This document shows positions 1,351-18,545 of a stretch of 27,508 nt of DNA, piece after piece (position 1 is the first letter of the stretch; each line of letters starts with the position of its first letter). Below the pieces are notes generated by a model that ran no database searches, was not told where the DNA came from, and was given only the letters and a program-made list of their open reading frames with translations. The position numbers were made by a program, and so were the translations under genes. The DNA is taken from assembly GCA_964623795.1 (NCBI GenBank), contig CAZUVI010000001.1, forward strand, positions 8,315 to 35,822. Reading direction: 5' to 3'. The DNA comes from an uncultured Candidatus Saccharibacteria bacterium. Lineage in GTDB: Bacteria; Patescibacteriota; Minisyncoccia; UBA6257; CAYSDW01.

Positions 1351-1515
1351 AGCACTCCTGATGTTGTACGAAAACACGTTGTCTATTTTCCCAGCGCGAA
1401 AATAGCAACTCGCTCTCGGCCGCACTCACGCTGTCGCTTGCGCTCGTCTGGCTTTGCCAGACACCGTGCCCGCTCGGCCTCCGAGACGGTTTTCTTAACA
1501 ACAGTCAGGAGTGCT
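1351..1515. repeat. Nested palindromic intergenic element A (MITE/REP-like)
   Basis: AGCACTCCTGA (1351-1361) is the perfect inverted repeat of TCAGGAGTGCT (1505-1515). Further pairings: TGTTGT/ACAACA, AAAAC/GTTTT. Inner hairpins: CTATTTTC/GAAAATAG, TCTCGG/CCGAGA, GTCTGGC-TTT-GCCAGAC. Confidence 0.7.
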
Positions 1516-9385: not shown

Positions 9386-11081
9386 CATCCGCGAGTATCG
9401 CCGCGCCATCGCGTTCTTGAGCGTGCTCGCGGTGGCTTCCGCGCTCGCCAACTCGTTCGTCCCGTACATAAGCGGGCGTCTTATCGACTCCCTGATATCG
9501 CTCGACCGCGATGCGGTCACGGCGCTTCTTGCGGTCTGGCTCGGCATCAAAATTGTAGCGGATATCATCGATTGGCAGATCGGCATTCGGAGCGACCGCT
9601 TCGAGACGGAGATCGAGGGAAATTACACCGCCAAGGGATACTCTCGGCTTCTTCTTCTGCCCGCCTCCTTCCATAAGTCCCAGAAGATGGGAGAGATCTT
9701 CGACCGCATCAACCGCGCCGCGAGCCACATGAGCGCCATCACGAGCCGAATACTGGTGACCCTCGCGCCGGAGTTTTTGAGCATCTTCTTTGCGCTTGCC
9801 ATCATGTTCTCGATCAATGCGAAGCTCGCGTTTGTCCTTTTGGGCGCCGTCACGGTCTACGCGCTTATTATCGCGCTTGCGACGCCGGGCATGGCGCGTC
9901 TTTTTCGCGCAATGCACGCCGCCTATAATCGGGCGTACGGCGACGCCTACGACGTGGTGATGAACGCCTTGACCGTAAAACAGGCCGGCGCGGAGGCCCA
10001 CGAGAGCCGCAAGATCTTCCAGAGTTTGTGCGTCAAAGCGGCGGAGTTCTGGTATCGCATCGTCGGCATCCAGCAGGGGTTGAGGGTTTCCCAGCGCATG
10101 CTGATAACGACGACGCAACTCACGATCTTCGTCTACTCGTTTTTTCTCATCTCGCGCGGCGAGCTCACCATCGGAGAGCTCGTGATGTTCAACGGCTATG
10201 CGGCGATGCTCTTCGGGCCGTTCTCGATCCTGGCGCGCAACTGGCATCTCATCCAGAACGGCCTTACCGCCATCATGCGCGCGGACAAGATCCTGGCTAC
10301 GGCGCCCGAGGTCTACGTGCCGGAGCACGCCGTGATGCCGGGGGAGATAAGGGGCGAGGTGCGATTCGAGGGAGTGTCGTTCGCCTACGGCGAAAAAGGG
10401 GCGCGGATCCTGCGGGATATCACGTTTTCGGCGCGTCCCGGCGAGACGGTCGCCTTGGTCGGCGAGTCGGGGGTGGGCAAGTCCACGCTCGTCGACCTCA
10501 TCTCGCGTTACTATGCTCCGGCGAAGGGCAGGGTGCTCGTGGACGGCCACGACGTGGCGTCGCTCGATCTGCGCGTTCTGCGGTCCCTGATCGGCATCGT
10601 TCCGCAGGAGGTGACGCTCTTCAACGATACGGTGAAGAACAACATCCGGTACGGCCGGTTCGGCGCCACTGACGAGGAGATCGCTGCGGCCGCCAAGGAG
10701 GCGCATGCGCACGATTTCATCGAACGGTTTCCCAAGAAATATGCCCAGGTGGTGGGCGAGCGGGGCATCAAGCTCTCGGTGGGCCAGAAACAGCGCATCG
10801 CGATCGCCCGGGCCATCCTCCGGGATCCGCGCATCCTCATCCTCGACGAGCCGACCTCGGCGCTCGATGCACGTTCCGAGGCGCTTATCAAAGGCTCGCT
10901 CGAGCGGCTCATGAAAGACAAGACCACCTTCATCATCGCGCATCGCTTGAGCACGGTCCGCAAAGCGGATATGATCCTGGTGCTCGAGAACGGACGGATC
11001 GCCGAGCGCGGCACGCACGAGGAGCTCCTCGCGAAGGGCGGCATCTATGCCAGTCTCTACGCGATCCAATTCGCAAAATGA
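9327..11081 (+). CDS. ABC exporter, fused TMD-NBD (MsbA/MdlA-like)
   Basis: About six TM helices, Walker A GESGVGKST, Q-loop VPQE, signature LSVGQKQR, Walker B ILILDEPTSALD, H-loop IAHRLST. The start (9327 vs 9288) is uncertain. Confidence 0.92.
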   Translation: MQKAKRTTHYLEGARILVRNIREYRRAIAFLSVLAVASALANSFVPYISGRLIDSLISLDRDAVTALLAVWLGIKIVADIIDWQIGIRSDRFETEIEGNYTAKGYSRLLLLPASFHKSQKMGEIFDRINRAASHMSAITSRILVTLAPEFLSIFFALAIMFSINAKLAFVLLGAVTVYALIIALATPGMARLFRAMHAAYNRAYGDAYDVVMNALTVKQAGAEAHESRKIFQSLCVKAAEFWYRIVGIQQGLRVSQRMLITTTQLTIFVYSFFLISRGELTIGELVMFNGYAAMLFGPFSILARNWHLIQNGLTAIMRADKILATAPEVYVPEHAVMPGEIRGEVRFEGVSFAYGEKGARILRDITFSARPGETVALVGESGVGKSTLVDLISRYYAPAKGRVLVDGHDVASLDLRVLRSLIGIVPQEVTLFNDTVKNNIRYGRFGATDEEIAAAAKEAHAHDFIERFPKKYAQVVGERGIKLSVGQKQRIAIARAILRDPRILILDEPTSALDARSEALIKGSLERLMKDKTTFIIAHRLSTVRKADMILVLENGRIAERGTHEELLAKGGIYASLYAIQFAK

Positions 11082-12073
11082 AATTATCCATCGGCATCGT
11101 AGGCCTTCCGAACGTGGGGAAATCCACGCTTTTTCGACTGCTCACGAAGCAGGCCGTGAACGTGGCGAACTATCCCTTCGCGACCATCGACCCGAACGTG
11201 GGCATCGTGCCCGTGCCGGACGAGCGCCTCCTAAAGCTCACCGAACTCTCGAAGTCGAAAAAGACGATCCCTGCCGTCGTGGAGTTTTATGACATTGCCG
11301 GCCTGGTGCGAGGCGCCTCGAAAGGCGAGGGGCTGGGCAACCAGTTCCTTTCGCACATCAAGGAGGTGAACGCCATCGTGCACCTCCTGCGTTGTTTTCC
11401 GGGGAGCGACATCGTCCATATCGAGAACCGCGTCGATCCGATCGCTGACCTCGAGATCATCCACGCCGAGCTTTCGCTCAAGGACCTTGAGGCGGTGGAG
11501 AAGGCGATCGGCCGCGCCGAGTCCGACGCGCGGGGCGGCAAGAAGGAGGCGCTCACGGCCCTCCCCGTCCTTGCGCGCGCGAAGGAGGCCTTGGAGCAGG
11601 GCAGGCAGATCGTCGAGTATGCGAACGATCCCGCCGTACAACCCCTGAACCTCCTTATGGCAAAAAAGCAGCTCTATCTTTTGAACGGTTCAGCGGCGGA
11701 TGTTCCCGAGGCGCTTGCGGCGCGCATCAAAGCGCTCGGCGGCGAACATATCATCGCCGACCTTGCGCACACGGACGCCGTGCCGGAGCTTATTCGCGCG
11801 GCTTACCGCATCCTCGATCTCATCAGCTTCTTTACGACCGGCGAAGATGAGACGCGCGCGTGGACGACGGTTCGCGGCGCCTTGGCGCCAAAAGCCGCCG
11901 GCGAGATCCACTCCGATTTCGAAGAGAAATTCATCCGTGCGGAGGTTATCGAGTGGGAAAAGCTCGTCGAGGCGGGAGGATGGAGCGCCGCGAAGGCCAA
12001 GGGTTGGCTGCGGATCGAAGGCAAGGACTATGCGGTCAAGGACGGCGACGTGATGGTTATACGGCACGGATAA
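11078..12073 (+). CDS. ychF: Redox-regulated ATPase YchF (Obg family)
   Basis: GIVGLPNVGKST, NYPFATIDPN, DIAGLVRGAS-GEGLGNQFL, TGS domain (AAGEIHSDF, VKDGDV). ATGA overlap with the ABC gene. Confidence 0.96.
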   Translation: MKLSIGIVGLPNVGKSTLFRLLTKQAVNVANYPFATIDPNVGIVPVPDERLLKLTELSKSKKTIPAVVEFYDIAGLVRGASKGEGLGNQFLSHIKEVNAIVHLLRCFPGSDIVHIENRVDPIADLEIIHAELSLKDLEAVEKAIGRAESDARGGKKEALTALPVLARAKEALEQGRQIVEYANDPAVQPLNLLMAKKQLYLLNGSAADVPEALAARIKALGGEHIIADLAHTDAVPELIRAAYRILDLISFFTTGEDETRAWTTVRGALAPKAAGEIHSDFEEKFIRAEVIEWEKLVEAGGWSAAKAKGWLRIEGKDYAVKDGDVMVIRHG

Positions 12074-12080
12074 GGGGCGC

Positions 12081-12224
12081 GAGCGCATCCATACCCCTTC
12101 GGGGGTCGGCTCGCCGCGCTCCTGCGGCGCGGCGGCCTTAGCCTCGGCGCCTGTGCTCCGCCTCCGGCGGAGACCAAGCCACAGGCGCCTCCGGAAACCC
12201 TCTCAGGGGTACGAATGCGCTCTT
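12081..12224. mobile_element. 144-bp structured dispersed element, copy B
   Basis: Aligns without gaps to 16544-16687 (18 mismatches). Terminal stem plus inner hairpins; sits 7 nt after the ychF stop between convergent genes. Confidence 0.8.
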
Positions 12225-12245
12225 GATGAGGGGGTAGAAGTTCGC

Positions 12246-13751
12246 TTATTCAATGATGAACGTAAAGGCCCCGCGCATAGTAGGTCCGTTCGGGGCGAAC
12301 GTTTGCGCCTCCGGACCCGTAAGGTAACGGATATTTTTGCGTTTTTGCTCCTCGGGCAGGAAGGAGTCGGTAAGGAACATCACGGTTTGCGCAGGCATCG
12401 GTATCCCGCGCACCAAAACGCCGTCCGCCTCCACGATCACGTTTTTTGGCGTTGTATCGGGAAGCGCGCGCATCTCGTGGCCGATCTCGACGTAATCCGC
12501 TGCGAATGCGTTCTGTACGTTCGGATCCTGTCCCCAGGTCATGAAATACGAATAGTACGCCTCGTAGAAGAGCAGGCCGAAAAAGAGAACCGCAAGGACC
12601 TCGAGATGCGTGGCGCGGGCAATAACACCGATGCGCAAAAAGCCCCAACTGTTCTCTTTCGAGAAATGAGTGTCCGCGAGCCGCTCTTTAAGCAGTTCCC
12701 AGAGCGCTATGCCGCCCCGCGCCGCGATGCCGAAGACGGGAGGGGCCATGAGAATGGCACGGAGCGCATGCGGCAGTCCTTCGTTCGAGATCGCAACAGG
12801 CAGGAGCGCGAGGCCGAACCACGTAAAGAGGACCTTGTCGTAGAGGGCGCGTTTCTTGAGACCGACCGCGATCCCGATGAGAAACAGGATGCCGACCGGC
12901 CAGAAAAGCTCGGGCTGGCCCGCGATGTTATGGCGCCAGTTCCCGTCGCCGCGGACGTTGAACATGCCGAGCGTAAGCGCGACGTTTTTCGCAAAATCCC
13001 GGAGCGGAGCGGGGGAGCTCATCACAGAGAGCTGGCCGGTGCGGCCGAGGAAATCCGCGGGGTGGAACGCGTAGTAGCCGAGGAGCGGAGCCGCAACGAG
13101 CGCGGCAACGAGAGTGACGCTCCCCGCGATCTTCCATCGTTTCGCATGCTGCCGGAGCCGCGGCACGAAACAAAGAAGGAGAAGCGGCATCACCCGGTAC
13201 GCGATGTAGGTGTGCGCGCCTAAGGCCAGCGCGGCTCCGGAGAGCGCGGCGGTCCGCACGGAGCCGGTCCGCATGGCGCGGAGCAGGAAATAGGCCGCCC
13301 AGATAAGAAAGAAGGGAGCCATAATGGCGCGGAAGCCGATGCGCGAGAAAATGATGTGCCAGACGCTCGTGGCCATAAGGAACGACCCCAGAAAACCGAT
13401 CAGGAAGTCGTTCTTGAGTTCGCTTGTCCGCGCGAGCTCCCGAAACAGATAAAACGCTCCCAGCACGCTCAGGATGCCGAAAAGCGCGGACGGGAGGCGG
13501 AGCATCCACGGCTCGCGGATGCCGGTCGCGGCAAGGAAGAGTGCCTGGATATTGATGAAGAGCCCTTCGCGGCCGTTGTTCTCGGGATAAAAGACCTTGA
13601 ACGTTCCCGTACGGATGGCTTCAAGCGCGTTATTGCCGTTCATCGCTTCGTCGGGATAGAGTCCCGGCGGCGTCGTCTCTAAATTGTAGAGGCGCAGGAA
13701 GGCGGCTATAATGAGAAGGAACAGGATCGCGCCGATCTCCTTTTTTGTCAT
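12246..13751 (-). CDS. Multi-pass GT-C glycosyltransferase (ArnT/PMT-like)
   Basis: PPGLYPDEAMNG, ENNGREGLF, WHIIFSRIGFRAI, HTYIAYR, GDGNWRHN, PHALRAIL. Confidence 0.85.
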   Translation of the reverse strand: MTKKEIGAILFLLIIAAFLRLYNLETTPPGLYPDEAMNGNNALEAIRTGTFKVFYPENNGREGLFINIQALFLAATGIREPWMLRLPSALFGILSVLGAFYLFRELARTSELKNDFLIGFLGSFLMATSVWHIIFSRIGFRAIMAPFFLIWAAYFLLRAMRTGSVRTAALSGAALALGAHTYIAYRVMPLLLLCFVPRLRQHAKRWKIAGSVTLVAALVAAPLLGYYAFHPADFLGRTGQLSVMSSPAPLRDFAKNVALTLGMFNVRGDGNWRHNIAGQPELFWPVGILFLIGIAVGLKKRALYDKVLFTWFGLALLPVAISNEGLPHALRAILMAPPVFGIAARGGIALWELLKERLADTHFSKENSWGFLRIGVIARATHLEVLAVLFFGLLFYEAYYSYFMTWGQDPNVQNAFAADYVEIGHEMRALPDTTPKNVIVEADGVLVRGIPMPAQTVMFLTDSFLPEEQKRKNIRYLTGPEAQTFAPNGPTMRGAFTFIIE

Positions 13752-13767
13752 TACATTCGATTATAGA

Positions 13768-14178
13768 ATGCCCGAAGAACTCCCGCAAAACCTGCATCCC
13801 GCGCTTGAACGCGACATCGCGCGCCTTTCCGAGCAGATCGGCAAGCATCGCGAATCTCCCGAACTCAAAGGCGCGGAGAGCAAAGAACTGATCCGCGAAT
13901 CCCTGCGGTCGCTTGCGCCTCAACCGGCAACGCCGGCGGTTCCGCAACCGCCGTCCCCGGAGGACGACGGCAGCGCCCTCCTGCCGTCCTATATGCAGGA
14001 TGAGCCGGCCGCGACCAAGCTGATGGTCGAGGAGCTTCTTGAGCTTTCGCTCCATACCGGGATCACGCAGGGCCTTAAAGAGGCGAGAAAGGCGGGGCCG
14101 TACATCCTCGACGCGTTCCACGACGCGCTTGTGGACAAGCTGTACCCCGAGCTTAAGAAGCGGGGAATCGTGGAGTAG
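13768..14178 (+). CDS. Hypothetical protein, partner of the downstream coupling-type ATPase
   Basis: 136 aa, Pro-rich linker, C-terminal helix ILDAFHDALVDKLYPELKKRG; 14 nt upstream of the ATPase. Start ATG 13768 chosen to avoid overlap with the divergent gene. Confidence 0.7.
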   Translation: MPEELPQNLHPALERDIARLSEQIGKHRESPELKGAESKELIRESLRSLAPQPATPAVPQPPSPEDDGSALLPSYMQDEPAATKLMVEELLELSLHTGITQGLKEARKAGPYILDAFHDALVDKLYPELKKRGIVE

Positions 14179-14192
14179 GCGGGGACGCTCCC

Positions 14193-16544
14193 ATGACGCT
14201 TTTTTTGATCATCATAAGTTTTCTTGCGGCCGCGCTTGTCCCGCTGGTCATTTGGTACGCGTGGAACATCCGCCGCCGGCTCTTTTTCGAGAACTTCAAG
14301 CTTCAGCTCTACCTCATCCGTATTCCGCTCGCCTCGAAAGAGGGAAAGGACCCGAAGGCGGAGGTCAACCTTTCGGAACAACTTTTTAATGCGCTCGCGT
14401 CCTTAAAGCGGCCGTTCGTGTTCGAAGCGGCGGTCTCGCACGTCGGCGAAGACATCTGCTTTTACATCGCGGTTCCCCGGGCACATGGCGGCATGGCGGC
14501 GCGACAGATCCAGGGCCTCTTTCCCGATGCGCAGGTTGAGGAAACGGGGGACTACAATCTTTTTAACCCGCACGGCGAGGCGCAGGGCGCCTCCGTAACC
14601 CAAAAACATCACTATGCACTGCCTATTCGAACGTATCAGGACATCGGCGGCGAAACGTTCGCGCCGATCTTAAGCGGTCTCTCCAAGATCAACACTGCCG
14701 GCGAAGGAGCGGCCATCCAGGTGATCGCACGGCCTGCCTCGGGAGAGGTGAAAAAAACGATAGCTGCGGCGCTGCAGCGGCTTAAGGCGGGCGAAACGCT
14801 CGAGAGGGTGCTCTCCTCGGGCGGCGGAGCCGCGCTTTCTTCGGCGCTCAAGGAGGCGTTCCCGGGCAAGCGGAAAAAGGAGGGAGAGCCGCGCGTGGTG
14901 GACGAGCAGGCCGTGCACGCGCTTGAAACGAAGCTCGCAAAGCCGCTTTTTTCGGTGAACGTCCGCGTTCTCGCTTCCGCGCCGTCGCAGTATCAGGCGG
15001 ACGCGATCCTGGACTCGATCGCGAGCGCCTTTACCCAGTTCTCCGCGCCGAACCGGAACGAGCTCAAGGCGGTCACGCCGCGCAATCTCGAGAGGTTCAT
15101 CTATCAGTATTCGTTCCGGGAGTTCGATCCTTCCCAGGCGATGACGCTCACGAGCGAGGAGCTTGCAAGCGTCTTCCATCTGCCCACGCCGTTCCTCGAG
15201 GTGCCCAAGATCAAATGGCTCAAGTCCAGGGAGGCCGCGCCGCCGACGGCTCTTTCCGCGGCGGGCGTGCCGATCGGGGAAAGCGTGTTCCGCGGAGAGC
15301 GGAAGACGGTGCGCGTGAGCGACGAGGACCGCCGCCGTCATGTCTATATCATCGGTCAGACCGGCACCGGAAAATCCGTACTGCTCGCGAACATGCTCGC
15401 GGACGACATAGAGCGGGGCAAGGGCGCCGCCATCATCGATCCGCACGGCGATCTCGTTGAGGCAGTGATGCGGCTCATCCCCGAGGAGCGGCAGAACGAC
15501 GTGATCGTGCTCGATCCAGGCGACCTCATGCGGCCCGTGGGCCTCAATATGCTCGATGTCGACCCCATGCGGCCGGAGGAGAAGACCTTCGTGGTGAACG
15601 AGTTGCAGGGAATCTTCAATAAGCTGTTCCCGCCCGAAACGATGGGTCCCATGTTCGAGCAGTACATGCGGAACGCGCTTCTGCTTCTCATGGAAGATAC
15701 GGCGGAGCCGGCGACGCTTATGGAGGTGCCGCGGGTCTTCACCGACAGCGCTTTTCGCGCCCGCAAGCTCGCGCGCATCACGAATCCGGCGGTTGTGGAC
15801 TTCTGGGAGAAAGAGGCGGTCAAAGCTGGCGGCGAGGCTTCGCTCGCGAACATCACGCCCTACGTCACCTCGAAGTTCAACAACTTCATCGCGAACGACT
15901 ATCTCCGTCCCATTATCAGCCAGCCCGCGTCCGCGTTCCGTTTCCGCGAGGTGATGGACGAGGGGAAGATACTGCTTGTGAACCTCTCGAAGGGCCGGAT
16001 AGGCGACATCAACGCGAACCTGCTTGGCATGATCATTGTCGGCAAGCTTCTCATGGCCGCGCTCTCTCGCGTGGACATCGCCGATCCGGAGAAGCGGCGC
16101 GACTTCAACCTCTACATCGACGAGTTCCAGAACTTCACGACCGACTCCATTGCCGTCATTCTTTCGGAGGCGCGGAAATATCGTCTGGACCTTGTCATCG
16201 CGCATCAGTTCATCGCGCAGCTTACGGAGAAGATCCGGGATGCGGTTTTCGGCAACGTGGGTTCGATGGTTTCATTCCGCGTCGGCGTGCAGGACGCGGA
16301 GTTCCTCGAGAAGCAGTTTACTCCGACCTTCACGAAGCAGGACCTTATCAACATCGATAACTTCAACGCCTACGCGAAGCTTCTCATAAATGGGCAGACC
16401 AGCCAGCCCTTCAATATCCGCACCATTCCTCCGCTTCGCGGCAACCCGGACCGCGTGGAGCGGATCAAGGAGCTTTCCCGCGCGCGCTACGGCCGCGACC
16501 GCCATGAAGTGGAAGCGGCGGCACTGAAGCGGATAAGGGAATAG
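14193..16544 (+). CDS. VirD4/TraD/HerA-FtsK-type ATPase with N-terminal TM anchor (DUF87/TrwB-like)
   Basis: RRRHVYIIGQTGTGKS (Walker A), IIDPHGDL, LYIDEFQNF (Walker B), EARKYRLDLVIAHQFIAQL, AVFGNVGS. Confidence 0.88.
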   Translation: MTLFLIIISFLAAALVPLVIWYAWNIRRRLFFENFKLQLYLIRIPLASKEGKDPKAEVNLSEQLFNALASLKRPFVFEAAVSHVGEDICFYIAVPRAHGGMAARQIQGLFPDAQVEETGDYNLFNPHGEAQGASVTQKHHYALPIRTYQDIGGETFAPILSGLSKINTAGEGAAIQVIARPASGEVKKTIAAALQRLKAGETLERVLSSGGGAALSSALKEAFPGKRKKEGEPRVVDEQAVHALETKLAKPLFSVNVRVLASAPSQYQADAILDSIASAFTQFSAPNRNELKAVTPRNLERFIYQYSFREFDPSQAMTLTSEELASVFHLPTPFLEVPKIKWLKSREAAPPTALSAAGVPIGESVFRGERKTVRVSDEDRRRHVYIIGQTGTGKSVLLANMLADDIERGKGAAIIDPHGDLVEAVMRLIPEERQNDVIVLDPGDLMRPVGLNMLDVDPMRPEEKTFVVNELQGIFNKLFPPETMGPMFEQYMRNALLLLMEDTAEPATLMEVPRVFTDSAFRARKLARITNPAVVDFWEKEAVKAGGEASLANITPYVTSKFNNFIANDYLRPIISQPASAFRFREVMDEGKILLVNLSKGRIGDINANLLGMIIVGKLLMAALSRVDIADPEKRRDFNLYIDEFQNFTTDSIAVILSEARKYRLDLVIAHQFIAQLTEKIRDAVFGNVGSMVSFRVGVQDAEFLEKQFTPTFTKQDLINIDNFNAYAKLLINGQTSQPFNIRTIPPLRGNPDRVERIKELSRARYGRDRHEVEAAALKRIRE

Positions 16545-16687
16545 AGCACATCCGCGCCCTTTCAGGGGTCGGCTCACCGCGCTCCTGCGGCGCGGCGGCC
16601 TTCGCCTCGACGCCTGTGCTCCGCCTCCGGCGGAGACCAAGCCACAGGCGCCTGCGGAAACCCCTTCAAGGGCGCGGACGTGCTCTT
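16544..16687. mobile_element. 144-bp structured dispersed element, copy C
   Basis: Second copy of 12081-12224. Begins in the last base of the ATPase TAG, again between convergent genes. Confidence 0.8.
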
Positions 16688-16724
16688 AGGGAGGGGGGAC
16701 GAAGAACAGAATGCCCGCCCGGTT

Positions 16725-17249
16725 TTAGCGGGTTTTGGCGAAAATTACGTCGTCGATGAGCTTATTTCCCCTTTTCACTACGTTTTTACGGATACCCTCT
16801 CGTTTATAGCCGCATTTTTCTAATACCCGCATTGATCCTCTGTTGTGGATAAAAACATGTGCGTAAATTCTCCGAAGGCCGAGTTTTCTAAAACCGAAGT
16901 CGGTAAGAAGCTTTAGGGCGTCGGTCATTATTCCTTTATTCCAGTATTTCCTTGCAAGCCAGTATCCTACTTCTGCCTTGTGGCCTTTTACCAGGTGGTG
17001 AAACCCTATGGCACCGGCAACTTCTCCGTTGATATCAACTACAAACGACATCGTCTCGGGCGTTTTCTTCCGATTTTCCTTCATACATTTCGCTATCCAC
17101 TGTCGAGCATCCCGGAGAGTATAAGGGAAAGGAACGCCTAGAGTGTTCTGGCTGATAGTCTTGTCGTTAATGTTCCCTGCAAGCGAGAGCGCGTCGCTCT
17201 TCCGGTAGGGCCGCAGAACGAACCGTCGAGATTTGATCATCGTCTTCAT
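16725..17249 (-). CDS. GNAT N-acetyltransferase, RimJ/RimL family
   Basis: LRPYRKSDA, AEVGYWLARKYWNKGIMT, NRGSMRVLEKCGYKREG. Low GC (40-48% in three sampled 60-nt lines). Confidence 0.9.
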   Translation of the reverse strand: MKTMIKSRRFVLRPYRKSDALSLAGNINDKTISQNTLGVPFPYTLRDARQWIAKCMKENRKKTPETMSFVVDINGEVAGAIGFHHLVKGHKAEVGYWLARKYWNKGIMTDALKLLTDFGFRKLGLRRIYAHVFIHNRGSMRVLEKCGYKREGIRKNVVKRGNKLIDDVIFAKTR

Positions 17250-17258
17250 GACGTTGTC

Positions 17259-18545
17259 CTAACCAAGGCGGTCGTTCTGGATGAAGATCTTGAGGCCGGC
17301 GAGCCAGGTGCGCAGGGCCTGGCCGAGCGGCATGACGGACTTGAGATAGTAGAACTCCACAAGACCCTTCAATACCCAGCCCATGAGGCCCGTGATGATC
17401 ACGGGACCGAACTTGGCGACGGCGTGCTTGCCGCCGACGGGGATGATGTAAGGATAGTTCAGGGGCCGATAGACCTTGTGGCGGATCTTCCTCGAGATGC
17501 CCTCCGCCGCCTTGATGTCCTCGACGGCGTTATGCGCCACGATGTCCGCCTGGATGAGCGCGGCGCGCGCAACGCCCGGCATGGGCCGCTTGGTCACGGG
17601 GTCGTAAAAGCAGATCGCATCGCCCAAGCCGTAGATCTCGCCGTGGAGCTTGAGGTCCGGCGTTTCGGGGAGGCATTCCATGTTCTCGGTCACCTCAATG
17701 CGTCCGCGCTTCTCGCGTTTCACGGGCAAGCCAGCGATGGTCCGCGACGCTTTAACGCCGCCAGCCCAGACAAGGACGTCGTAGAGAATGCGCCGCCCGC
17801 TTTTGAGCCGCACCTCTTTCGCGTCGACGGATTCGATGCTTTCGCCGGTCGAAAGTTCTACGCCGAGCTTCCTAAGGCGCGTTTCCACTGCCGCGGTAAC
17901 GCGGGGATCGAAGCCGCCCAAGATCGAGGGACCGATCTCGACGATCGTCACGGAGGCGGTGCATACCCTCCGCTCCTGCATCTCGCACGCCCATTCGAGG
18001 ATCTCGGCGCCGAGCTCGACGCCGGTCGAGCCGCCGCCGCCGATGACCACCCGCACCGGAGCGCCTCCCGCCCGCCGCTCCGAGAGCGCATCCCGGATCA
18101 CGCGGGCCCCTTCGAAGGTCTTGAGGTCCAGGGCGTGTTCCTTGAGGCCCGGTATGTCGAAAAAGTTCGTTTCGGAACCCAGCGCGAAGACCAGGCAGTC
18201 GAAGGTGAGCTTCCGGCCGTCCGAGAGATGCACGTCGCCTTCCTTGAGGTCGAGGAGCTCCACTTCGGCCTTGATGAAGCGGACGGGCGATCCGGCGATG
18301 AGCTCGGAGACAGGGAAGGCGACGATGGACTTGAGCTTGATGGCATCCGCCGTTTCTTTCGAGGTCGTCGCTATCTCGTAGAGCGTCGGCGTGTACGTGT
18401 GGTAGTCGTTCCGGTCCACCAGAACGACCTCATAGCGGTCGAGAAGGTCGAGGCGGCGAAGCTTTCGAGCAATGTTCCGCGCCGCACGCAACCCGCCGAA
18501 GCCGGCGCCGAGGACCAAAATTGTCTTTAGGGGTTTCGATTGCAT
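17259..18545 (-). CDS. ndh: Type II NADH dehydrogenase-like FAD/NAD oxidoreductase
   Basis: GAGFGG (FAD), HTYTPTLYE, GGGSTGVE (NAD), YGLGDA, ARAALIQA, C-terminal amphipathic membrane segment. Confidence 0.8.
   Translation of the reverse strand: MQSKPLKTILVLGAGFGGLRAARNIARKLRRLDLLDRYEVVLVDRNDYHTYTPTLYEIATTSKETADAIKLKSIVAFPVSELIAGSPVRFIKAEVELLDLKEGDVHLSDGRKLTFDCLVFALGSETNFFDIPGLKEHALDLKTFEGARVIRDALSERRAGGAPVRVVIGGGGSTGVELGAEILEWACEMQERRVCTASVTIVEIGPSILGGFDPRVTAAVETRLRKLGVELSTGESIESVDAKEVRLKSGRRILYDVLVWAGGVKASRTIAGLPVKREKRGRIEVTENMECLPETPDLKLHGEIYGLGDAICFYDPVTKRPMPGVARAALIQADIVAHNAVEDIKAAEGISRKIRHKVYRPLNYPYIIPVGGKHAVAKFGPVIITGLMGWVLKGLVEFYYLKSVMPLGQALRTWLAGLKIFIQNDRLG

Follow-up and report, generated by a model that had tools for sequence, protein, structure and literature searches.

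Whether a repeated, strongly folded segment is mobile DNA, a functional RNA or a signal serving neighbouring genes is the question raised by a stretch of 27,508 nt from an uncultured Candidatus Saccharibacteria bacterium (GenBank assembly GCA_964623795.1, contig CAZUVI010000001.1), the whole of which is called the window here. Few known genomes are as small and streamlined as those of CPR/Patescibacteria, which are thought to be poor in mobile elements. The original prediction had described two copies of a 144-nt segment, and had interpreted them as a mobile substrate of an HUH/RAYT-like enzyme or as a structured 3'-UTR RNA.

Recomparison of 12081-12224 with 16544-16687 reproduced an ungapped alignment of 144 nt with 18 mismatches (87.5% identity), and the recount returned exactly the five two-sided compensatory changes described before (element positions 5/138, 12/131, 13/130, 17/126 and 21/122). 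Both copies, designated A and B, adopt the predicted multibranch fold with z-scores of -7 to -10 against shuffled sequences (for copy A, -7.2 with the + strand folded and -9.8 with the - strand), and both are located, as noted previously, at + strand stops between convergent genes and without a U-tract. The pair is real but not solitary, given that a third copy (C) is present in the window, 5 nt past the greA stop, and nine copies were found in the genome (G000, 0.72 Mb, 96.5% complete) by covariance-model search. An ordinary family member occupies the site of copy C in the sister genome G001; the flank of G001 C37 maps to the copy C site of the window. The features are listed in Table 1.

Table 1. 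Coordinates of the repeat copies, their helices and adjoining features in the window
Feature	Position	Strand	Remarks
Copy A, Y-shaped element	12081..12222	+ (covariance-model orientation)	R1/R2 matches of 160.5 and 144.9 bits
Copy A, P1	12081-12098/12205-12222		
Copy A, P2	12101-12106/12197-12202		
Copy A, P3 hairpin	12108-12137		loop 12121-12125
Copy A, P4	12142-12143/12193-12194		
Copy A, P5	12146-12155/12180-12189		
Copy A, P6 hairpin	12156-12172		
Copy A, 7-nt bulge ACCAAGC	12173-12179		unpaired
Copy A, 3-nt bulge UCC	12190-12192		unpaired
Copy B	16544..16685	+	architecture as copy A; P1 differs from A by the five compensatory pairs
Copy C, diverged member	1351..1515	+	larger P5/P6 arm; R2 match 45.8 bits, E 1.9e-9
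Left flank common to A and B (CGGATAAGGG...)	12067..12080	+	overlaps ychF stop TAA 12071-12073
G-rich right flank of copy A (TTGATGAGGGGGTAGAAG...)	12223..12245	+	imperfect direct repeat of left flank
ychF GTPase gene	11078..12073	+	Pfam YchF-GTPase_C and MMR_HSR1; stop 7 nt before copy A
PMT_2-like membrane glycosyltransferase gene	12246..13751	-	Pfam; convergent on copy A
TraG/VirD4-like coupling ATPase gene	14193..16544	+	Pfam; stop TAG 16542-16544 overlaps first base of copy B
Terminator-like small hairpin, CCCGC...GCGGG then TTTT	16714..16737	+	read from sequence
GNAT gene	16725-17249	-	Pfam; convergent on copy B

Repeat search extended the A/B similarity to 168 nt (12067-12234 and 16530-16697, 85%). 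The common stretch begins upstream, at CGGATAAGGG, and overlaps the stop regions of both genes; at copy B the same letters, in another frame, form the last four codons of the ATPase gene. The right flank beginning with TTGATGAGGGGGTAGAAG has similar counterparts at copy B and at G001 C29 and is not family-wide; G runs were present in the flanks of only 18 of 121 copies, and the imperfect G-rich flanking repeats were restricted to the G000/G001 subfamily. The terminator-like hairpin is situated 28 nt 3' of copy B and extends into the end of the GNAT gene that converges on it.

Covariance-model search of this genome and of CPR metagenome-assembled genomes bore out a widespread family with strong covariation. 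Within the order, 43 of 151 genomes held copies, and within the class 64 of 151 did (no copy was seen in 58%); 13 of 151 in a phylum sample and 10 genomes of other Patescibacteria classes were also positive, with 1-11 copies per element-bearing genome. Contigs of metagenome assemblies were observed to break off inside the element, so its practical effect is to break such assemblies. Rfam 15 (4227 models, both strands) returned nothing at gathering thresholds for the whole window and nothing at E ≤ 10 for 11900-16900. For ten other members searched at E ≤ 0.1, only tRNAs and one sub-threshold match elsewhere in a locus (Rp_sR47, scoring 30 bits where the cut-off is 60) were obtained, none on the elements, and phage and plasmid collections contained no family match. 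The novelty proposed for the pair held when a match to Rfam or to a described REP family was sought, as none was found in Rfam. Copies A and B are true members of an uncatalogued, widespread family of Y-shaped repeats in the ultra-small Patescibacteria/CPR bacteria.

The unit, 135-165 nt long and typically about 140 nt, comprises a variable closing stem P1 of about 18 bp, a 2x2 mismatch and a three-way junction. Its near-invariant unpaired letters form a CAGC loop, an ACCAAGC bulge and a U-N-C bulge, which read GCUG, GCUUGGU and G-N-A on the better-folding strand. These letters were 97-100% conserved class-wide among more than 100 diverged paralogues. Covariation was detected at 52 of the 54 pairs, and 93% of cells were paired, whereas slid controls gave about 45%. 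Every one of the 17 P1 pairs was variable, with 3-4 pair types each; the ends of the element were its least conserved parts and the interior loops its most conserved. The claim that selection targets a multibranch fold and not the sequence is supported by these values, as selection or maintenance.

A functional structured RNA family on the reverse strand, acting as a multicopy small RNA or a scaffold whose loops bind protein or nucleic acid and with mobility secondary, would be consistent with this covariation and with the class-wide invariance of the loops. Irrespective of which strand was sense, the reverse strand was the more stable one in 114 of 121 copies (mean difference 9.0 kcal/mol), and structural quality was likewise independent of the sense strand. 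The reverse strand also tolerates three times more wobble pairs, and on the model strand A.C mismatches reached 3.1% versus 1.0% for G.U. In the alignments, the internal loops of the reverse strand are purine-rich, with a 2x2 loop of the tandem G.A type and a bulged G-N-A, features typical of folded RNAs; on this reading, the lack of an Rfam match would make the family a new class. We nevertheless consider such an RNA unlikely. Wobble pairs were scarce in the stems (1-3%), whereas they typically make up roughly 10% in rRNA helices. Neither strand of the copies carried a promoter at a fixed distance, and no consistent terminator was found. All six close pairs were arranged right end to right end with a spacing of 14-28 nt, and the reverse-strand 5' ends face each other with no room for two promoters. 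Furthermore, eight copies are located within essential genes, more than half of the class-sample genomes have none, and sister genomes differ in occupancy.

The eight intragenic copies, about 7% of the total, are in frame in genes for MnmA (three copies), TGT, an IscS-like protein, RNase HII, PGM and Wzy. Pfam domains are split by the element and the ORF remains open through it. The insert is visible in the MnmA alignment, and MnmA of G000 itself lacks these 45-55 aa.

The intergenic positions could point to a cis-acting module at the 3' end of the upstream mRNA, selected for terminating transcription, blocking 3' exonucleases or stalling ribosomes. Among co-oriented copies in tandem contexts, P1 started at a median of 10 nt past the stop codon, approximately 46 of the 77 tandem-context copies began -1 to +22 nt from the stop, T/C was mildly enriched directly after P1, and the stems are very stable. 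Liang, Rudd and Deutscher reportedly found in 2015 that E. coli REPs less than 15 nt from stop codons affect translation. Proximity to the stop is, however, largely forced because the spacers at empty sites are only 10-35 nt, and the neighbouring genes are unrelated (196 clusters among 233 ORFs). Inverted copies accounted for 23 of the 77 in tandem contexts (30%) with equal structural quality, and 16 copies were found between divergent genes. At least five T in the next 8 nt followed the model strand in only 25 of 121 copies and the reverse strand in 12 of 121; an intrinsic (Rho-independent) terminator was rejected on these counts and on the lack of a U-tract at A or B. A plain hairpin would suffice at a 3' end, and such a role therefore does not explain the invariant junction loop letters. 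Selection as a 3'-end module is accordingly improbable. The structured 3'-UTR RNA proposed originally is weakened by the inverted and intragenic copies and by the better-folding strand, which is usually antisense to the upstream gene.

Comparison of sites among genomes supported a mobile family rather than a gene-specific signal, as had been proposed, through sister-genome occupancy, empty ychF loci and unrelated neighbour genes. Two copies of G001 occupy sites that are empty in G000, one common spacer, that of copy A, carries its copy flipped, so that the element of G001 abuts the stop of the glycosyltransferase gene, and the copy after greA has a different core. A tRNA-Glu site is filled in G080 and empty in G120, and none of the 68 ychF loci of relatives holds the element. 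Copies at different loci of the same genome have P1 in common, one element can be nested within another at P6, and whole helix blocks are swapped at orthologous sites with flanks 92% identical. The whole Y-shaped unit of about 140 bp, closing stem included, has been copied to new sites, and the helix swaps at orthologous sites demonstrate gene conversion among copies. The three filled/empty comparisons were not clean insertions, with 45-65 extra non-conserved nt on the right. No consistent direct repeat indicating target-site duplication was found in 121 flank pairs, and the flank and end profiles of the copies contained no conserved target, tag or terminal motif. A classical MITE (DDE substrate) was rejected on the sequence-variable terminal stem P1 and on the lack of a fixed-length duplication in the same flank pairs.

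An enzyme that mobilises the family was sought by profile and co-occurrence. The window encodes none, in agreement with the original prediction, and the HUH/RAYT (Y1) partner that had been proposed failed. A REPIN- or PATE-like substrate of an HUH Y1 transposase (RAYT or IS200/IS605-type) acting in trans would fit the extragenic palindromes, which lack target duplications, and the strand asymmetry, which recalls single-strand transposition, and Y1_Tnp-like genes occur in 93 of 151 class genomes. These genes were present in 39 of 64 element-bearing versus 54 of 87 element-free genomes, so Y1 and the element are not associated. The PF01797 profile had no match in G000 (nine copies), G080 (seven copies) or G096, which carries 11 copies and is 99% complete in three contigs. 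Furthermore, the Y1 genes are not flanked by the element, and the ends of the element lack a GTAG-type 5' tetranucleotide. This explanation is largely refuted by co-occurrence and is very improbable. An IS200/IS605-derived PATE or omega-RNA remnant was also rejected, with both PF01797 and TnpB (PF07282) unmatched in G000 and no element beside Y1 genes. Reverse transcriptase (PF00078) was present in 24 of 43 element-bearing versus 51 of 108 element-free genomes of the order, and G001 has at least four copies with no reverse transcriptase found; a retroelement-dependent (SINE-like) repeat was rejected on these data.

Plasmid ssoA-type origins combine a strand-specific fold, conserved loop letters and freely covarying stems. 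The signature of the element resembles theirs, and a strand-specific host signal in single-stranded DNA (for instance a site of priming, as in the single-strand origins of rolling-circle plasmids, or one of recombination or segregation) could account for the strong preference for Watson-Crick pairs. In addition, 70% of the tandem-context copies have one orientation relative to the genes, and therefore probably also to replication. However, more than half of the related genomes searched carry no copy, sister genomes differ in the number and sites of copies, some copies are intragenic, and no plasmid or phage match was obtained. We regard a host signal of this kind as highly unlikely.

On balance, and with modest confidence, we favour a non-autonomous, structure-defined interspersed repeat, namely selfish mobile DNA of the REP/REPIN, Correia and Rickettsia-palindromic-element kind that is specific to Patescibacteria. 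Fold-level maintenance and a mobile family, as originally interpreted, are retained in this reading; the HUH/RAYT partner is not. Movement may proceed via a folded single-stranded intermediate, in which a trans-acting factor would read the invariant CAGC, ACCAAGC and U-N-C on the three-way junction, and the stems would need only to pair. The active strand is probably the reverse complement of the model orientation. As their positions show, copies persist where they are least harmful, namely in tiny post-stop spacers or in tolerant protein loops entered in frame and translated through. The scarcity of wobble pairs suggests palindrome correction at the DNA level, which together with gene conversion may keep the stems Watson-Crick and thereby yield the apparent covariation. 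By analogy, the transcript hairpin is probably a 3'-end barrier or an RNase III target, as a side effect rather than the cause of conservation. Several observations stand against the favoured reading. The 97-100% loop conservation exceeds that of usual decaying selfish repeats and would likewise be compatible with a functional RNA. Y1/RAYT, TnpB and reverse transcriptase were not found here or were not associated, target-site duplication was lacking, and filled and empty sites were not clean.

Tentatively, the invariant loops may serve for recognition or catalysis at the core of a new CPR structured nucleic-acid class, either a reverse-strand functional RNA or a mobile element moving as a folded single strand by a non-HUH mechanism. 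Both invariant motifs contain NCCA when read on one strand and UGGN when read on the opposite strand; T-box and RNase P RNAs hold tRNA 3' ends by NCCA/UGGN pairing. A comparable pairing of the motifs would be a speculative lead rather than a finding.

About 40% of the sampled Paceibacteria genomes carry up to 11 copies of a 140-bp element whose fold is highly conserved. If the element is selfish DNA, it represents a new transposition substrate independent of known transposases, remodels essential proteins (MnmA, TGT and IscS-like) through in-frame insertion, and adds a second lineage with reduced genomes to Rickettsia as a case of 'selfish DNA in coding genes'. A functional RNA would instead be an abundant new class. 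The element mimics RNA covariation, and caution is therefore required in automated ncRNA discovery.

Among known systems, integron attC sites were rejected as a candidate, because attC sites form cassette arrays with simple imperfect hairpins, whereas these copies are multibranched and scattered among housekeeping genes in either orientation. Orphan multicopy RNA motifs (HEARO, GOLLD-type) also have strong covariation, conserved loops, a function not known and a patchy distribution; the present element differs in having no Rfam match and no fixed promoter or terminator, and in its copies inside genes. Correia (CREE/NEMIS) and ERIC MITEs are similar in size (100-200 bp), long terminal stems in RNA, presence/absence among strains and in-place inversion, and RNase III processing is expected in both cases (PMC10969869). 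In Correia elements the terminal inverted repeats are conserved and a TA duplication is present, as for a DDE-transposase substrate; neither was seen here. REP/BIME/REPIN sequences are likewise extragenic palindromes behind genes, close to stops, with inverted pairs and no target duplications. REPs fold as simple hairpins, 20-40 nt long, that bear a conserved GTAG/CGTC tag (PMC3733652), and they are accompanied by a RAYT gene, whereas the present element is a tagless 140-nt Y with Y1 genes not found or not associated; a RAYT-mobilised REP/REPIN was rejected, since the element shows neither PF01797 co-occurrence nor a short tagged hairpin. Rickettsia palindromic elements (RPEs) are also palindromes that measure about 150 bp, keep a conserved fold and lack a known transposase; they lie in intergenic DNA and also, in frame, within housekeeping genes that are unrelated to one another, where translation turns them into extra loops (PMC10969869). 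The element behaves similarly in MnmA, TGT, IscS-like, RNase HII and PGM genes, which are unrelated and conserved and whose ORFs stay open through an in-frame insertion. It differs in phylum, in its small intragenic share, in its three-way junction with invariant loops and in its copy-specific closing stem. Homology is not expected because Rickettsiales and Patescibacteria are unrelated, and the likeness to RPEs is one of behaviour.

The original prediction described two related copies, and both stand: 12081-12224 and 16544-16687 align without gaps with 18 mismatches in 144 nt (87.5% identity), and exactly five outer-stem pairs (5/138, 12/131, 13/130, 17/126 and 21/122) are altered on both sides. 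Each copy folds much better than its dinucleotide shuffles: the + strand z scores are -7.2 for copy A and -8.1 for copy B, and the - strand fold gave -9.8. Convergent genes lie on both sides of copy A and likewise of copy B. The left flank CGGATAAGGG is common to the two copies and overlaps the stop region of each gene, in frames that differ; at copy B it supplies the last four codons of the ATPase gene. The sequence GGGGGTAGAA, to the right of copy A, recurs only to the right of one copy in another genome (G080, locus L081). Coordinates are collected in the table.

Location of the elements and of associated features (window positions unless a genome, contig or locus is named)
Feature	Location	Strand	Observation
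Copy A	12081-12222	+	begins 7 nt downstream of the ychF stop codon
Copy B	16544-16685	+	starts inside the TAG of the TraG/VirD4-like ATPase gene
Copy C	1351-1515	+	5 nt after greA; found with the rebuilt model R2
Extended A/B similarity	12067-12234 / 16530-16697		168 nt (repeat finder)
TraG/VirD4/HerA-like coupling ATPase gene	14193-16544		783 aa; immediately precedes copy B; encoded in a CPR genome of 0.72 Mb
GNAT acetyltransferase gene	16725-17249
Direct join in low-depth contigs (2.7-3x), two soil metagenomes	16540 to 17269		14 other letters between
Contig breaks, related soil and groundwater strains (X14/X16)	12105-12161; 16540-16635
Reverse transcriptase domain (L054)	G000:C2:20966-21493		PF00078, 77.7 bits
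Partial Y1_Tnp ORF (L140)	G181:C6:5523-5753
Partial Y1_Tnp ORF (L141)	G248:C19		simple palindromes on its flanks
Partial Y1_Tnp ORF (L142)	G197:C9
tRNA genes directly beside elements	L081 1415-1487; L082 1689-1766; L049 1222-1295 and 1647-1718		tRNA-Glu, tRNA-Asp, two tRNAs flanking one copy
MnmA HUP split near 131 without a model-confirmed element (examples)	G156:C15; G196:C2; G264:C14; G273:C102

In the genome holding the window (G000; 0.72 Mb in 111 contigs), BLAST recovered just copies A and B, and in the sole congeneric genome (G001) four copies, two of them at contig ends. A first covariance model (R1), built from four copies, detected roughly 100 copies in the same order, spread over 43 of 151 genomes with 1-11 in each. 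The model rebuilt on 35 diverse copies (R2) found nine copies in G000, including copy C, which had been flagged separately as a third nested palindrome. R2 was positive in 64 of 151 genomes in a class sample and in 13 of 151 in a phylum-wide sample, 10 of the latter belonging to other classes. A match to a described Rfam family, which by the original prediction would have refuted novelty, was not found: no Rfam 15 model matched either strand of the window or of ten further members, even at permissive thresholds. BLAST against phage and plasmid collections returned nothing similar, and a motif scan of IMG/VR yielded 14 pattern matches against about 25 expected by chance, all 14 of which were rejected by the covariance model. 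The repeat also causes contig fragmentation of metagenome-assembled genomes in this genus, with breaks inside or beside elements in three G001 contigs (C37, C82 and C85).

The fold is Y-shaped. The closing stem P1 (17-19 bp) varies in sequence from copy to copy and is separated from P2 (5-6 bp) by a 2x2 internal loop, which reads UC/UC on the model strand (the covariance-model orientation) and GA/GA on the other. P2 leads into a three-way junction. One arm is the hairpin P3 (9-12 bp), whose loop C-A-G-C is conserved at 96/82/100/97% in 80 copies; the second arm consists of P4, P5 and an optional P6, and carries a 7-nt bulge ACCAAGC (99/99/97/91/74/81/100%), a 3-nt bulge U-N-C (97/60/94%) and a 'UC' before P5 (89/94%). 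Large inserts can take the place of P6, among them a complete second element pointing the other way (G000 contigs C34 and C62, G058 locus L032 and G151 locus L063). Changes on both sides were found in 52 of the 54 modelled pairs; standard pairs filled 93.4% of cells, compared with 41-46% when partners were slid by 1-3 columns, and none of 500 shuffles reached the observed covariation score. Mutual information between loops and bulges, sought as a sign of a pseudoknot, gave only two extra P1/P2 pairs. Two P1 positions (columns 12/217 and 14/215 of the 80-copy alignment) read A.C on the model strand, that is G.U on the reverse, in 16 and 10 copies, respectively, a wobble that recurs at the same place in a stem of otherwise Watson-Crick pairs.

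The original prediction of a structure-conserved mobile family was right, and its mobility was borne out by comparison of orthologous sites. The G000 sites corresponding to the copies on G001 contigs C29 and C22 are empty, being a 12-nt overlap region upstream of a gene predicted to be miaA-like from its N-terminal P-loop peptide, and a 35-nt spacer. In the spacer between ychF and a glycosyltransferase gene the G001 element is flipped and adjoins the stop of the other gene, and the diverged copy C that follows greA in G000 corresponds in G001 to a standard member. In genus g31, the gap separating tRNA-Glu from its neighbouring gene holds a copy in G080 but is a 10-nt spacer in G120. None of 68 Patescibacteria ychF loci, checked for empty sites, carried an element. 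The three filled/empty comparisons were not clean, with 45-65 extra, non-conserved nt to the right of the filled site. P1 is often common to different loci within one genome (GACTTCCGC... in G080, AGATAAGAGAAT in G261), so the unit copied is the whole element, stem included. The possibility that P1 is an older terminator stem that received an inserted core was ruled out by this sharing and by the uniform P1 length. The direct join from 16540 to 17269 in two soil metagenomes represents a relative without copy B and without the GNAT acetyltransferase gene.

The genomic context was analysed for 121 copies with flanks, taken from BLAST and covariance-search loci and fetched regions and located by the covariance model. 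Tandem genes co-oriented with the model strand surround 54 copies and tandem genes of opposite orientation 23, while 19 copies lie between convergent and 16 between divergent genes. In the co-oriented class the median distance from stop codon to P1 was 10 nt, with at least 55 nt left before the next possible start; distances in the inverted class were 31.5 and 35.5 nt. Since empty sites are spacers of just 10-35 nt, proximity to a stop codon is largely forced. The flanks of the 121 copies showed no conserved motif and no target duplication, and the 233 neighbouring ORFs fell into 196 clusters, so the element is not associated with any particular gene. Six pairs of copies are separated by less than 200 nt, and in every one the right ends face each other. 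Some elements lie directly beside tRNA genes, an adjacency that is probably not meaningful, with about two cases expected by chance.

The two strands are not equivalent. In 114 of 121 copies the strand opposite the model strand (the reverse strand) is the more stable, by a mean of 9.0 kcal/mol. Leaving out one conserved loop-closing U.G, A.C mismatches on the model strand, which are G.U on the reverse strand, are three times as frequent as G.U (56 vs 20 in 36 copies; 128 vs 43 in an independent 80 copies). The Watson-Crick fraction was 0.863 with flanking genes running with the model strand and 0.851 against it (p=0.42), and the A.C/G.U asymmetry was likewise the same in both groups; therefore, the asymmetry is a property of the element and not of the host transcript. 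A functional RNA read from the reverse strand is a less probable but serious alternative explanation of the family; for selfish DNA, the loops are conserved to an unusual degree. A fixed-distance promoter was found on neither strand of the 121 copies, only 25 of which have a U-rich tract. The SOLiD metatranscriptomes listed for the same site, three tiny sets, shared no words and speak neither for nor against expression. A reverse-strand gene for a small peptide was ruled out because P6 varies freely.

Orthologous sites in genus g31 indicate how the helices change. With flanks 92% identical, five adjacent P1 pairs, or whole P3 or P5 helices, differ and are fully compensated, and the helices brought in match those seen in other copies of the genus. 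These blocks reflect mosaicism produced by gene conversion between paralogues rather than gradual compensation of one pair after another. Template-switch correction of quasi-palindromes is known from E. coli genetics. Because helices are converted in blocks and wobble pairs are scarce (1-3%) on either strand, we infer that much of the 'covariation' is maintained by DNA-level processes, namely inter-copy conversion and quasi-palindrome template-switch correction, and that the actual target of selection is the invariant loops.

The HUH/RAYT mechanism suggested in the original prediction did not hold. The transposase domain (PF01797) was not found in G000, in G080 or in G096, a 99% complete genome with 11 copies. 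Within the class, Y1 occurs in 93 of 151 genomes independently of the element (39/64 element-bearing vs 54/87 element-free), and the Y1 genes had no flanking element. Paceibacteria commonly, and often in several copies, carry ORFs of some 215-260 aa in which the Y1_Tnp match (30-45 bits) is confined to the C-terminal two thirds of the domain (93/151 genomes, up to 10 each); these may constitute a separate REP/RAYT-like system. In G000, neither a TnpB/Cas12f domain nor a split 'autonomous' element with a gene at the P6 position was detected. A reverse transcriptase, considered as a partner, is present in G000, yet it occurs order-wide in 24/43 element-bearing and 51/108 element-free genomes (75/151 in total) and was not found in G001. 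The reverse transcriptases of the order are unrelated to the element and probably belong to diversity-generating retroelements.

An ORF runs through the element in nine copies. In eight of them this ORF is a recognisable conserved gene with its Pfam domains interrupted by the element: MnmA (three genomes, each from a different family), TGT, a class-V aminotransferase (IscS/NifS-like), RNase HII, a phosphoglucomutase-family enzyme and a Wzy-type ligase. Of these eight, six follow the model strand and two the reverse strand. Three MnmA proteins carry a 45-55 aa insert after GHYVR, all in the same frame, which is absent from the G000 MnmA. Of 148 MnmA genes of the class, about six have a HUP domain match interrupted near profile position 131, and at least three of these hold model-confirmed elements, suggesting that the site is tolerant or preferred. 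Splits at the same place also occur in several genomes without a model-confirmed element there, and some ten other MnmA matches cover 660-740 nt where about 600 is usual; a general hot spot for insertions seems to lie in the loop after GHYVR.

Taken together, we consider it fairly probable that the element represents a new family of non-autonomous palindromic repeats, defined by their structure and spread across the Patescibacteria. It would be copied as a folded single strand, and some factor would recognise it through the three invariant unpaired motifs. Its behaviour is similar to that of REP/REPIN and Correia elements; inside genes, it resembles the Rickettsia palindromic elements (RPEs), for which the same in-gene insertion has been described (PMC10969869).
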